Below, piece after piece: positions 27,201 through 36,200 of a DNA stretch of 64,000 bases. The position numbers and the translations under genes were made by a program. The stretch lies in contig OY740793.1 in the NCBI GenBank assembly GCA_963514005.1, positions 28,768,001-28,832,000 of the forward strand. Reading direction: 5' to 3'. The notes beneath the pieces are model-generated. The model worked only from the letters and a program-made list of their open reading frames with translations, was not told the DNA's origin and made no database searches. Position 1 is the first letter of the stretch. Each line of letters begins with the position of its first letter. The DNA is from Raja brachyura (taxonomy: Eukaryota).

Positions 27201-30200
27201 GAAGTGAGGGGAGTGTAGGTAACCGTGGACTACAATTATTAATTCTTAAGAATTAATAGCTTATAGAAGGAGAGAAGAGTCACATCAAAGAAATTAGCCC
27301 TTCCGCTGACAATGTCTTTGCCGATCATCAAATCCCCATTCATCCTACATTAATCCCATTTCCTTCTGCCACGTTCTTTCATCTCCACCACCCAGCCCCA
27401 TCGCAGCACACCCCGATCCCACACTCAACTACATACTGGGATATCCTAGAGTGGCTAATTATCCTCCCATGAACACAATGATGAGTTTAGTTAAGATAAC
27501 CATGAAAATCAAATGTACAACTTCAATGCTGGATGCAGTGATCTCCAGCAACCTTCCCCTGCAACCGCAGAAGATGCAATGCCTGTCCCAATGCTTGTCC
27601 CTAAACGCAAATTGGAGGAACAGCATCTCATATTCAGCTTCCAGCCCAGTGGTATGAATATTGACTTCTCCAACTTTAGGCAGCCCTGGCATTCCCTCTC
27701 CCTCTGACCCTCCACCACCCAAGTCGCACTAGCTTCTCGTTTTCACTGAACAAACAGCTAACAATGACCTGTTTCCGTTATCATCGTTACTTTTTTGCAT
27801 ATCTTTCATTCATTGTTCTTTATCTCTCTCCATCTCTACATTTCTCTCATCATCTACATTTCTCGTTTCCCTTAACCCTAACCAGTCTGAAGAAGGGTCT
27901 CGACCCAAAACGTCACCCATTCCTTTTCTCCAGAGATGCTGCCTGTCCCCCTGAGTTACTCCAGATTTTTGTGTCTATCTTCGGATATCCCTGAAATTAA
28001 GAAATCTTCCTCACCACAGTACAAGCCCCCTCTCCAGGATTTGGGTCCTTGTCAGCATGAACATGAACTCTGCAGCAATTACTTTTATCCTCTTGTTCTC
28101 AATGCTCTGGTAGATTGCAGTCTTGTAAAGAAGCTTTCCTGCCAGCAAGGCCTCCAGTCACAGTAGAAGGTATGCGGCACGGTGGCGCAGCTGTAGAGTT
28201 GCTGCCTTACAGCGCTTGCAGTGCCGGAGACTCGGGTTCGATCCCTACGACGGGTGTTGTCTGTACGCAGCTGGTACATTCTCCCCATGACCGCATGGGT
28301 TTTCTCTGCGATCTTCAGTTTCCTCCCACACTCCAAGGTATGTAGGTAAATTAGCTTGGTGTATGCGTAAATTGTCCCTAGTAGTAGGATAGTGTTACGT
28401 GCGGGGATCGCTGGTTGGTGCGGACTCGATGGGCCGAAGGGCCTGTTTCCGCACTGTATCTATAAACTAAACTAAAAAAAACTAAAAGTAAGGAGCCTTG
28501 CAATTAATTCTGGAAAACCGATTCTTTGACTTTTCCCAATCTCGTAACAGCACCATTTCAACCTCCTGCCTCACATTTTGGGAAAACTTGAGTCCGTACT
28601 AAATGTAATGGATAGTAAAGAGAACAATGGAAAAATAAATCGCAGTGTAATTTCTCTTTTTCCATCAATGGAGTTCATTGCTAAGAAGTTAAAACTATAG
28701 TGAATATCATTTAACTGGCAGGTTGACACAAAATGCTGGAGTAACTCAGCGGGACAGGCAGCATCTCTGGAGAGAAGGAATGGATGACGTTTTGGGTCAA
28801 GACACTTCTTCAGACTCAGACTGGCGTTAGAAACTCCATATTTTATTTCACTACCAACAGTGCAAGAGATTGGAGAATAGGAACTAAGACATCTGCAGAA
28901 AGAATGCCAAACTCGAGAGATCAGCAAATTATATAAACCCTGAAATGCCCCCCATGCACTGAATCAATGCAGAAGAAGCAATGTAAGGCCCACTCAGTTG
29001 TGAATAACTTCCTGTGCTTTCAAATGCTAGATTTTTCAGTAGCAGTGTTTCTGAAATATTATTCAACATACTTTGATTCCCTTTAAGATGATTGTGCCTT
29101 TAACAAAAAATAAATCCCTTTGCGATGAAACTGTAATTTCGACCTGTCATCCATCCTTATTACAAACTTGACACTTTAAATTGATCACTGGGGAGGAACT
29201 GTTGCCCTGTAAAGTGAGCAGCATTTTGCTGCAAAACACCCTTTTATTGTGTTAACATTAATGAGAAAAGATAACATTAGGAAAATTTTAATTGTTAGTA
29301 TACTTAAAGTTAATAGAAAATAAAATAATCTGGGAAAGGTAATAGACTATATTTCATTATCGCTAGTTTTGCACGACTGTCAAAGACATACTATGTCACA
29401 ATTAATTTGATCTGTTGCCACATGATTTATATTTTAATAGATTTTATATTAAATACTATACTAAAAGCCTTAAAGCTACAATGTATTGTTTTAGTGTGTA
29501 ACATAACATTTTCCCAATATTCATTAAATTTTGGTATCAGTTTTCCAGCCAAGAATTACCATCCTTCAGAATTCCACCATATTAAATAAGGGTTTGCTTT
29601 TAGTGTCTGCTACGAAGTCTACATTAAGTCTCGCTTTTTTTAAATGATGGTAACGGCTACCAAAACGGCAACAATTCCATTTACAATATGCATTAGCCTA
29701 CCAAGGATAAGGTCTTCAAAGCAAAAGGTCATTTCATGTACGTTGTATTGATTAATATGAAATAGGTTCTGTTCGCTCAGCATAAGATAAATTAATCACC
29801 CTAAGTAGGTTGTAGACCTCCTTTATAAGGCTGTTTGAGGAAAACCAATCCAAATGTGATTTCTAAAGAAGAGACACCATTGAGTATCAATGAAGACATT
29901 ATAATTAGTTATATTTCAGGCAATGCAATATAATCGTCTACATTTTTTTATTTAGTGGAGATTTATATAATCTTTATCTAATGAGTGTTCTCTGAACAAC
30001 TACTGCTACTTGTCAGGCAGCCTTGTAAAGGAGACTGCAGTACTAAATACAGAGAAAACAGACTTTGAAGTTTATAATAGAAGTCACATTACTGTTTCAC
30101 TTGCCCTTCTGTGCTTCTTCTTCTGGATAAAAGTCACGACTAATTAAATCATCTGATGTTTCGCCATTCATCTCTTCATCAAATTCCTTCTCACTGTTGA

Positions 30201-33200: not shown

Positions 33201-36200
33201 TGCGAATCACTACAGTTCCATATCCTCGACCTGATGAGAAAGAACTTACTAAAATATCTGCATGCAGAGAATACCTAATGTTGTGTTTCATTCGATTTAA
33301 AGACAAATCAGTGAATGTCTAAAAGGTCAAAAATGTGATTCATTTGGTACCCGATTGTCTCTTCAAATACTTATCTGTATTGAGTTGAAATGACACTAAT
33401 TGTTCAATGTAATGCCATATGGGTAACCTGTAAATAGTACTAAATTACTTCATAATACAGAATTGGTTTATAAAATGTACTTTGCCACAATTTCCTTATT
33501 TGGGGAACAATTAAAATAATTAGCCAGAATATTTAAAGCAATGATAGCCCATCTAGACCAGCAAAGGCACATGGCCCATTGAAACCTTTAGTGGCTAATT
33601 TCAATATTTATTTCCTGATGGACATTTGTCATTGAAAGTCAGTACTCAGCTTGAATTTCTTTTCGTTTTGGGGTATTAAGTTGATATCTTAATATCCACT
33701 CACAAAATTTAAAAAGTCACTGCTTTACCTTTATTCTCGTGTCAGCAGAGTTCTAACATCATAGTAAAGACAATATTATTTTAGTCAAAGCCAAAGAAAT
33801 GTAAACATAAAATAGCTGTGTTTTTATCATTGAATTTTACCTTGAATTTATTCCCACATTTCGCACACTATAGACTGTAGGAACGATAAGATTATAAGGT
33901 CAATCATCATTAGCCCATTTTTTATCACCAGTTGTTTATTTTCTCTTGACAACTCTTCTCGTCATCAAAAAGTTATTCCCAACATGTCAGTGCAAACTCT
34001 TTTGTTCCACTTGGGCTGCTGGTTTTCCTGCGTTCAGTGAGTCCACTGCTGTGCATCGGTCGGATTCCCAGTCCTCAGCTTGGGTGTCATGTTCAACTTT
34101 AGCTTCCAGCCTCCACTTACAGAAAATACACTGACACAAAATGCATAGGCCAGCCTCACCCTGGGGTGTAGTGATGGTTAAATGATCCTCCCCCACCCCC
34201 CCGCAAGTCTTGCAAAATTAGGTCTGTGTTCATTTGAAAATGTAGATTGGGAAAGATTTGAATGAATGTCTGGGTCGTAAGGGGGCAATTTAAAATGGTG
34301 AACAGGGTCAGGCCCTGGCATTGTGAACAGGAAAGGAACTGGAAGAAAGGATAATGTGGAGATTAGGTGCCTCTGGGATCACTGTCGACTCTGGCAGTGA
34401 CTAGGGCAAATTGAAGTGCAGGTGGAGTGGTTGGTGGAAGTTGGGTGGTGAGGGGACTGCCCTGAAAAATATTAGGGAACTCTGGGCCTAATCCAAGAAT
34501 TCCAGAACATTGCTGCTCTCTGTGGATGTGATGGTCCTGGGAATGTCCAACAATGATTGCTTCAGAGATAATTAGATGTTATTTCTCCCACAATACTCTA
34601 AAATGAACCATGCATTAGAAATGACAGCATTGAAATCATGTCAGGCATGCAAATGCGATGCGAGTAGTTAAATGAAATAGACATTACCAGGTTTCACTTC
34701 ATGATAAATACATTTTCATTGTGTGGCACTATTTTCTTGGTTAAATTTGTTAATCAAAAAATAATATAAATACTTTATCCCCATGAAAACAACTTTTAAT
34801 TGCATGGTTCTTTTAAAAAGGGATTTAACAAGCCACTTAATTCCATGGATGCTATTATATTGAAGAATATTTTTTTCAGGTATAAAAGATTTTCCTGGGT
34901 AACAATCAATAAATTTAAATATTTCCAAATATGTGATTATCTGAAAAAACATGCACAAGAATTTCACAAAATGCCATTAGACTTACTAGATGAAGTAATG
35001 AATACAAAGGCGGAATCAGCAAATTTAATTTCATATATATATATAATATTATACTAAATGCAGTAATACCAACAACGGAAGGTATCAGCGGTGAGTGGGA
35101 AAATGAACTAAGCATAAACATTTCCAATGAAAGGTGGAAAGAGTACTTATTAAATGTGCACAAATGCTCAATTAACGTAAGATACACTTTAATACAATTT
35201 AAATTTTACACAGAATATACTACTCAAAAACTAAATTAAATAAATTTTTCCCCAACGTCTCACCAATTTGTGATAAATGCCAGTTTCAAGAAGCTACTAT
35301 AGCACACTCATTCATCTTTTGTACAAAAATTCAAAGGTTTTGGATTGAAATCTTTGAAATCTTCACAAAACTGTTTAAAATAAAAATGACTCCAAAGCCA
35401 GAATGGATTATTTTCGGAATGACAGAAGGTAGTTTGGAATTAAATGTGTATCAAAATAATCTATTTGATTACGGCTTAATAATAGGAAAAAAGCTCATCT
35501 TAAAATTCTGGAAAAATGCTCCTATATCAACATTAAATATGTGGATTTTAACTATGTTTGAAACATTACATCTGGAAGATATGAGACTCCAGCAGGCAGG
35601 AAAAGCAGATCGTTTCTATCAGACGTGGTCTGCATTTATAGAATTGCTACAATGATAGCGTGCAGGTGTACCTCGGGCCTTGGTAGAGGGGGATGAAAAA
35701 CTATCGAGTTGGTGGATTCCTTTTGCATGATATATATATAATATAGTAACTGGCTTTTATTTTTCTCTTTGTCTCTCTTTCTTTTTTCTTTTTCTTTTCC
35801 AGGGTCTATCTCTTAATCCCCTTTCTCTAATTCTTTGTCCAAGGGTTGTTTTTTTTCTCCCCTTTGGCATGCTCTTTCACTTTCACAACTCTTTTCACCC
35901 ACTTCACTCTCTTTCTTTCTATTCTTTTTCTTTAAAAGCCATACAATGACTGTAACAATATATTTGTGATGTACACTGATGTATTTACATCTAATAAATA
36001 AAAATATATATTTTTAAAATTTTAAAATAAAAGATTTTCCGCATACCTTCCTTCTTCTTGTCATGGACAATGGACACTGACTTGCTCATAGAAAGTAAAT
36101 TCCCAGGTTTATTTTCAGATTTTTTGACAGTGTTTCTTAGGTTATTCTGAATAAGATTCTGCAAATTAATATAAAATGATGGTGTTAAATTGACCTGTGA

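Follow-up and report, generated by a model that had tools for sequence, protein, structure and literature searches.

Among the ABCC transporters, several systems have been described in which the chain between NBD1 and TMD2 has a regulatory role. In MRP2 (ABCC2) and in Ycf1, the linker occupying this position is flexible, contains CK2-type motifs and is reported to autoinhibit the transporter until phosphorylation releases it, the dephosphorylated linker of Ycf1 forming a hairpin in the substrate cavity (PMC10912322, PMC10944535). CFTR (ABCC7) possesses at the same place an R domain of about 200 residues, disordered and provided with multiple dibasic PKA sites, and a 2021 review states that this region is absent from the other ABCCs (PMC8640958). 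For ABCC5, the human protein MRP5 (PDB code 8WI0 and relatives) represents the closest solved structure. According to that work, its NBD1-TMD2 flexible region comprises about 55 residues (Leu786-Ser840), its autoinhibition is exerted by an N-terminal peptide and not by the NBD1-TMD2 linker, and an "R motif" located within NBD1 governs ER/Golgi localisation (PMC11156954).

The window analysed here, the whole stretch of 64,000 nucleotides from the skate Raja brachyura, contains an ABCC5-like gene of the same domain order as human MRP5, in which two optional exons, A and B, are located between NBD1 and TMD2. Together they constitute an ancient, alternatively spliced module that is apparently undescribed, a search of the openly accessible literature having found no paper on either exon. 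The features discussed below are as follows.

3145..56956, minus strand: ABCC5-like gene from NBD1 to the C-terminus, represented by 20 exons; its 5' half falls outside the window
36047..36158, minus strand: constitutive linker exon after NBD1, 112 nt, GT donor, ending in phase 1
33231..33276, minus strand: intronic stretch before exon A, with an in-frame AG at 33257
33018..33230, minus strand: cassette exon A, 213 nt (71 codons), phase 1-1
33151..33230, minus strand: core of exon A, 27 residues, a low-confidence predicted beta-hairpin with SEGD at the turn
33012..33017, minus strand: GC donor of exon A (GCAAGT), where read-through gives Gly-Lys-stop
30105..30482, minus strand: cassette exon B, 378 nt (126 codons), acidic, phase 1-1
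30238..30345, minus strand: most conserved block of exon B, 36 residues
30099..30104, minus strand: GC donor of exon B (GCAAGT); three database models end in the Gly-Lys-stop that its read-through produces
25933..26117, minus strand: first TMD2 exon, 185 nt, starting in phase 1

That A and B are real coding exons is practically certain. Of the two exons that flank them, the linker exon is identical in 37/37 residues to three skate RefSeq models and contains a SKSVSI motif kept throughout the ABCC5-like clade, and the first TMD2 exon is identical to the skate models in 60-62 of its 62 residues. The preliminary description had delimited two stop-free segments between them, 33257-33018 (240 nt) and 30482-30105 (378 nt), flanked by AG, divisible by three and in phase 1/1; all of this holds, but exon A itself is shorter. 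In every full-length homologous model that contains it (sharks, rays, coelacanth and newt), its acceptor corresponds to 33230, so that the exon measures 213 nt and the insert 197 residues instead of the 206 first proposed. The AG at 33257, used by no model, was rejected as the main acceptor and may serve as a minor one; the whole stretch 33231..33276, whose read-through matches the chimaera A+B model at its N-terminus in 9/15 residues, may represent a conserved splicing element or a minor acceptor. Both cassette donors are of the GC type (GGCAAGT, cut after the first G), a feature that the preliminary description had left unmentioned, the remaining 17 of the 19 donors in the window being GT, and both exons combine an otherwise consensus donor with a length divisible by three and phase 1-1, as in GC-AG cassettes. 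Genes subject to alternative splicing are reported to be enriched in GC donors (PMC2490688). No stop interrupts the translation of any of the five joins examined (skip, A, B, A+B and long-A+B). An additional residue occurring in a +Ala isoform is accounted for by no NAGNAG and no 3-nt microexon.

With respect to the host gene, the preliminary description had spoken of a chondrichthyan MRP5. The gene is instead an ABCC5-like paralogue, sister of MRP5 and not its orthologue. In the IQ-TREE analysis, from which the insert was left out and whose root depends on a single long ABCC12 branch, it clusters with ABCC5-like proteins of chimaera, coelacanth, lungfish, amphibians, sturgeon and teleosts (support 97/93). 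A second gene of the same genome, located on a separate contig (C14), clusters with amniote ABCC5 (support 89/90) and is 75-77% identical to tetrapod ABCC5, vs 66-68% for the window gene; this canonical ABCC5 shows, in the exons sampled, positions matching human ABCC5. AU tests rejected both a chondrichthyan-specific (p=4.8e-42) and a teleost-specific duplication (p=4.9e-05), and the trees indicate that the split predates the divergence of sharks and bony fish. FastTree with 44 rows left the ABCC5-like clade unresolved, and synteny with the amphibian copies was not found for MITD1, the sole neighbour tested and chosen as the neighbour in two frog models, its MIT_C matches occurring on contig C6 and not on C13. 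Our trees also place the zebrafish "abcc5" in the clade that is not of the human type. This paralogy has a practical use, fish papers attributing the two abcc5 copies to a fish-specific duplication (PMC4607974, PMC9354906), unlike the older date suggested here. It also follows that any comparison of the window gene with mammalian ABCC5 opposes paralogue to paralogue. No match to A or B occurs at E<=1 in the 11-kb linker interval of the C14 gene, and the exons are absent from human-type ABCC5, in agreement with what the preliminary description said of mammals.

The two exons differ in their distribution. Exon A shares its position with homologues in coelacanth (score 101, vs a shuffle maximum of 47) and newt (98 vs 48), and its length of 71 codons is the same in skate, shark (Mustelus) and newt. 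Its core is identical to that of the skate in 27/27 residues in chimaera, 18/27 in coelacanth and 17/27 in newt (63-67% for the last two), the alternating hydrophobic pattern being kept in coelacanth and newt, where changes are conservative, and the serine at the hairpin turn being kept in all three. Exon A is thus shared with coelacanth and newt and is not a chondrichthyan invention. The 27/27 run between skate and chimaera exceeds the longest identical run (22) of 16 constitutive exon pieces averaging 76%, which makes the predicted hairpin the best-conserved skate/chimaera stretch among the exons sampled; a cassette core that surpasses these constitutive exons in conservation argues for a specific role in binding. 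The core pattern was found in none of 110 other proteins (gene models, not genomes), and a phmmer search of 1.84 billion proteins with exon A gave five matches, two of them true, namely a skate-like 93-aa ORF and the chimaera model; the other three, long multi-stretch proteins of which one was inspected, were judged to be due to chance. Exon B is 75-83% identical in nine proteins from seven shark and ray species, and its 36-residue block is identical at 33-35 positions in five sharks and rays, 18 in chimaera and 4 in newt. Homology outside the cartilaginous fish is weak: among eight amphibian and lungfish acidic linkers, two reached P<0.05 (0.003 and 0.043, uncorrected). Since strong matches are confined to cartilaginous fish, exon B may be lineage-specific or fast-evolving. 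A common origin of A and B by tandem duplication was rejected, their "SEGD" similarity being non-significant (P=0.25).

The isoforms are known from gene models. Of the 19 chondrichthyan species examined, 10 have automated RefSeq/GenBank models with one or both exons, in A+B, A only or skipped forms, and the nine others have skip models only; neither exon is present in any of the four RefSeq models from skates (Amblyraja 2, Leucoraja 1, Rhinoraja 1). In three species (two Chiloscyllium and Mustelus) a single gene has both inclusion and skip isoforms in RefSeq, and exon A of the newt is a cassette, isoforms X1/X2 differing from X3 by exactly 71 residues, as in Mustelus and in the skate of the window. 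Sharks, rays, coelacanth and salamanders all have full-length models that include the insert. The "ABCC5-like" entries of these groups (e.g., XP_069749375.1, XP_059833182.1, XP_038631367.1, XP_014346313.1 and XP_078514279.1) and the chimaera entry XP_007889693.1 are the same gene with the same exons; the insert is already present in these automated database models, unreviewed predictions without description or function, skate models omitting it. Alternative splicing of A and B, which the models with and without them support as previously suggested, is considered very probable. Sequence and computed searches establish the exons with their frame and GC donors, how far they are conserved, the antiquity of exon A and the paralogy of the gene; the skip, A, B and A+B isoforms are known only from automated gene models. 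A search of sequencing runs, with a query containing an intronic repeat that probably drove the ranking, listed no holder recorded as RNA. Contigs from 4 of the 24 listed runs were surveyed over positions 25000-35900, a stretch that leaves the linker exon, and hence the 36047 junctions, out of sight. Among the 15 joints listed (774 more being unlisted), none led into or out of A or B. Spliced contigs over the TMD2 exons stop at 26117 in run X1 and 26119 in run X2, observations made with no DNA-run control, which could at best faintly suggest branching at this acceptor. In run X1 exon B was also covered, at a depth of 5.5, by an unspliced contig of 451 nt, and a depth of 33.9 over exon B in run X2 was discarded, being equal to that of a 21-letter repeat-joint contig (587.4 x 21 / 364). 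These observations weigh neither for nor against expression of A and B.

The insert resembles the CFTR R domain in position, size and, tentatively, predicted disorder, and "R-domain-like" is justified in these respects only (PMC8640958); it differs by its lack of PKA sites and of any sequence homology, neither exon having a Pfam match over the cut-off and the insert profile having no PDB match at E<=10 in a library that contained CFTR chains. No usable Atlas match was obtained. The absence of an RRxS PKA cluster was correctly anticipated, the insert containing no RRxS/T, [RK][RK]x[ST], RxxS/T or KKxS site. It had also been called acidic and Ser-rich, which is true piecewise: exon A is Ser-rich (11/71) with a net charge of +2, whereas exon B is acidic (-16) with Ser 9/126. 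The argument formerly drawn from CK2-type sites carries no statistical weight, six motifs occurring vs 4.6 in shuffles (P=0.30), so that they are not enriched; PKC, SP/TP and YxxPhi motifs and acidic clusters showed no significant enrichment in the insert and dileucine motifs are lacking from it. The insert shares with the MRP2 and Ycf1 domains its position, the presence of CK2-type motifs and, as predicted, flexibility, but no sequence similarity to them was found, and nothing in the available parts of the papers cited above presents those domains as optional cassettes. Two AlphaFold models, one lacking TMD1 (pTM 0.39), give pLDDT below 50 over the insert and draw strands on the core of exon A, where pLDDT is about 33-45; the underlying alignments are shallow, and the models indicate no docking site. 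A beta-hairpin is accordingly proposed there only tentatively, and the segment is presumed to be mostly disordered, which fits these values and a FoldIndex of -0.09, positive only for the exon A core and the conserved block of B.

Function at the level of the peptide is regarded as probable; action on the transport cycle itself has about even chances. The reading we favour, with equal chances of being right or wrong as a whole, is that A and B add, as optional in-frame exons, a segment that tunes ABCC5-like export. As gene models include or skip the insert, it would likely be a splice-controlled regulatory switch on the pump. Both exons would be skipped by default, because of their weak GC donors, and retained in certain tissues, where they would supply a segment of 71, 126 or 197 residues, disordered for the most part. 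The predicted hairpin would bind the transporter's own cytoplasmic face, folding on binding, and would tune the ATPase/export cycle in the manner of the Ycf1 and MRP2 linkers, the serine at its turn possibly mediating regulation. Skipping in 4/4 skate models, the nine of 19 chondrichthyan species with skip models only, the lack of PKA sites and CK2 enrichment, the low-pLDDT hairpin and the absence of Pfam, PDB and Atlas matches count against it, as does the autoinhibition of human MRP5 by its N-terminal peptide (PMC11156954).

It is less probable, and on the whole unlikely, that the spliced-in hairpin and acidic block interact with a separate protein, be it a sorting adaptor, a scaffold or a kinase, and affect localisation or turnover instead of the transport cycle. 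The insert offers short, highly conserved motifs within a disordered segment, which are typical of partner-binding sites, and in human MRP5 it is the R motif, in a different loop, that sets localisation (PMC11156954); but the motif counts given above include no dileucine and no enriched YxxPhi or acidic cluster. Conservation could also act on the RNA, as splicing control elements, with the peptide a neutral spacer. TGCATG before exon A and two ACTAAY before exon B, which we take to be RBFOX-type and QKI-type motifs, respectively, fit this idea, together with the conservation that appears to reach into the intron upstream of A; the substitutions of coelacanth and newt are, however, conservative in protein, and the conserved block of B lies in mid-exon, which renders the idea improbable.

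Slightly less improbable is the use of A and B mainly as terminal or initial exons, yielding a TMD1-NBD1-A-B half, a free A+B protein or an A-B-TMD2-NBD2 half. Two models, that of the whale shark (1003 aa) and the partial one of S. torazame (383 aa), do end at B with the Gly-Lys given by read-through of the weak GC donor, but such endings are expected from gene predictors missing a GC donor. Also in favour of such a use are the chimaera model, which splices A and B together and is filed as a separate, uncharacterized 210-aa gene, the Narcine 827-aa isoform starting just before exon A, and the fifteen codons upstream of A that resemble the chimaera N-terminus; the start codons of the skate and chimaera read-throughs, however, do not align, and the phase 1-1, the lengths divisible by three, the constancy of the 71 codons and the full-length inclusion models all favour internal exons. 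The preliminary version, in which an R-domain-like insert arose independently in a chondrichthyan MRP5 gene, retains in its favour the restriction of strong exon B homologues to cartilaginous fish; it fails for exon A, which coelacanth and newt share in position, and newt in length as well, and the gene is a paralogue for which the AU tests reject a lineage-specific duplication, so that it has become very unlikely. Chance open frames or intronic repeat remnants have hardly any probability left. The bare splice pattern (AG, at least 200 nt divisible by three, stop-free, GT/GC-RAG donor) was also found at eight donors in about 35 kb of nine other introns of the gene, and is therefore not beyond chance by itself, but conservation is: the frame is kept in sharks, rays and chimaera, and each segment is single-copy in the genome, in agreement with the original view that neither derives from a repeat.

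The favoured reading, that of optional exons tuning export, has the advantage that a natural pair of isoforms with and without the insert makes its effect directly testable. Where CFTR has its R domain, an MRP5 paralogue here contains a segment of the same size, to be set against the review which states that the R region is absent from other ABCCs (PMC8640958). In its widest form the picture, which we hold as possible and rather unlikely in all its parts, would be that of a second MRP5 of ancestral jawed vertebrates, apparently lost in amniotes, endowed at the R-domain position with a hairpin-built, two-exon domain that splicing switches between four states (none, A, B and A+B), the zebrafish "abcc5" belonging to the same lineage. 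If this were true, an ABCC regulatory domain gated by splicing instead of PKA would have been kept since sharks and bony fish separated, and the zebrafish "abcc5" used as a model gene would belong to the paralogue lineage and not to that of human ABCC5.

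The ABCC5-type gene, an MRP5 paralogue, lies on the minus strand, with 20 exons in the window running from NBD1 to the C-terminus. As the preliminary description stated, two segments devoid of stop codons, with lengths divisible by three and phase 1-1, occur between the linker exon and the first TMD2 exon. The 206-aa insert which it derived from them has to be shortened to 197 aa, with exon A reduced to 213 nt, since the models matching exon B start exon A at the Gly encoded at 33230:

36158-36047, minus strand: linker exon, 37/37 aa shared with skate RefSeq proteins
33230-33018, minus strand: exon A
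30482-30105, minus strand: exon B
26117-25933, minus strand: first TMD2 exon, 60-62/62 aa shared with skate RefSeq proteins

Located in the NBD1-TMD2 linker, both exons look optional, are in frame and are strongly constrained. Every join of the two segments and the flanking exons gives a stop-free translation, and both exons possess a GC donor (G|GCAAGT), the remaining 17 of the 19 window donors being GT. Each exon is single-copy in the skate genome. An exon-like splice pattern alone is not rare, as the bare pattern also occurs at 8 donors in the 9 other introns scanned (~35 kb). Upstream of exon A, an RBFOX-type TGCATG motif occurs at 33261-33266, where 150 nt would be expected to hold 0.06. 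A pair of QKI-type/branch-point ACTAAY motifs lies within 30483-30560, before exon B (0.08 expected); these motifs are post hoc leads for a possible tissue control. A one-residue-longer isoform, with an extra Ala at the 26118-26125 junction, appears in skate, stingray and chimaera models; neither a tandem acceptor nor a 3-nt microexon accounting for this Ala was found in the window.

Elsewhere in the window, the ORF text reveals a Tc1/mariner-like transposase in two overlapping frames (4034-5064, minus strand, last intron). Broken LINE-like elements, with L1-like and CR1-like reverse transcriptase fragments, occupy NBD1 introns (47378-50273 and 40333-43488, minus strand). GC-rich stretches (~50500-51200, ~54200-54700) and a 21-bp tandem array (~53800-54140) were also noted.

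Among 227 candidate proteins, nine match exon B (75-83% identity), all of them ABCC5-like models from 7 shark and ray species, and all nine also contain exon A, starting at the Gly of 33230. Judged from sequence, exons A and B are thus real and present in public automated gene models, so they are not new as annotation; no paper describing them came up in the literature searched. Searched without a profile against 1.84 billion proteins, exon A yielded a 210-aa chimaera "uncharacterized protein" (XP_007889693.1) consisting of ABCC5-like exons A and B spliced together, a piece of which sits in the linker of another chimaera model. Its contig and that of chimaera ABCC5-like are equal in length. 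Although annotated as a gene of its own, it is probably a split model due to weak donors. Among 19 chondrichthyan species with automated models, 10 show A and/or B and 9 the skip form only. Automated RefSeq models include both included and skipped isoforms of one gene in Chiloscyllium plagiosum, C. punctatum and Mustelus asterias, and skip both exons in all four skate models. Exon A occurs without B in Mustelus and Pristiophorus models.

Exon A was also recognized in coelacanth and the newt Lissotriton, among the best 120 of 1357 linker-search matches and in a further model comparison, with alignment scores of 101 and 98, respectively, the corresponding shuffles reaching at most 47 and 48. In newt, isoforms that contain exon A and isoforms that lack it are exactly 71 aa apart, which is the length of exon A in skate and Mustelus. 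Its 27-aa core (33151..33230) is identical in skate and chimaera (27/27). Among 16 constitutive pieces, which average 76% identity, a mean slightly lowered by the poorly aligned last piece, no uninterrupted identity is longer than 22 aa. An acidic segment occurs at the exon B position in salamanders, frogs and lungfish, its sequence homology to exon B being weak (P<0.05 in 2 of 8, uncorrected). For sturgeon and teleosts, the gene models are short.

The canonical, human-type ABCC5 of the skate lies on another contig (C14:6395694-6429892; matched over 12 exons, the pieces used being free of stops), and its linker interval gave no match to exon A or B. With the insert removed, a 21-row IQ-TREE places the window gene among the ABCC5-like proteins of chimaera, coelacanth, lungfish, amphibians, sturgeon and teleosts (97/93); the C14 gene falls with amniote ABCC5 (89/90). 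AU tests rejected a single clade of all chondrichthyan copies (p=4.8e-42), and likewise one uniting all teleost copies (p=4.9e-05), for groups chosen after tree inspection. In a FastTree of 44 rows the canonical clade was recovered (100) and the ABCC5-like rows stayed unresolved; since all 5 of its amniote rows are canonical, the paralogue was likely lost in amniotes. In both trees, zebrafish "abcc5" clusters with the ABCC5-like paralogue rather than the human-type ABCC5, and milkfish, mudminnow and newt possess both copies. Fish papers (PMC4607974, PMC9354906) describe the abcc5 duplication as fish-specific. Two ABCC5-like models from frogs are fusions with MITD1, which makes the two genes neighbours there; skate MITD1 (C6:76770741-76776703) lies on a different contig from the window gene.

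Of the acidic, Ser-rich character first attributed to the insert, exon A retains the Ser richness but is near neutral, and exon B is acidic. PKA sites are absent, as described, but the CK2-type motifs are at chance level. Pfam, PDB and Atlas searches with the insert gave no usable match. In AlphaFold models, residues 320-567 of a catshark NBD1-insert-TMD2-NBD2 protein (55 rows) show pLDDT < 50, and the chimaera A+B protein (18 rows) averages 35.6. In both models the A core is drawn, at low confidence, as a hairpin of two strands whose turn carries SEGD; in chimaera this hairpin reaches the highest local confidence (~45, still low).

We consider it about an even chance that weak donors would make skipping the default, that inclusion in some tissues would lengthen the linker by 71, 126 or 197 aa, and that the presumably disordered segment would offer the predicted hairpin to the transporter itself, tuning its cycle by analogy with the MRP2 and Ycf1 linkers. 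That the hairpin binds instead a partner protein for trafficking seems rather unlikely; truncated or half-transporter products are distinctly improbable, and constraint acting at the RNA level slightly more so.

The insert does not belong to the CFTR R-domain family, since it combines a lack of PKA sites with a lack of detected homology. Human MRP5 differs in having a short linker here and in being regulated from other regions (PMC11156954). The MRP2 and Ycf1 linkers tune the transport cycle (PMC10912322, PMC10944535), and the insert may act in the manner of such ABCC regulatory linkers.
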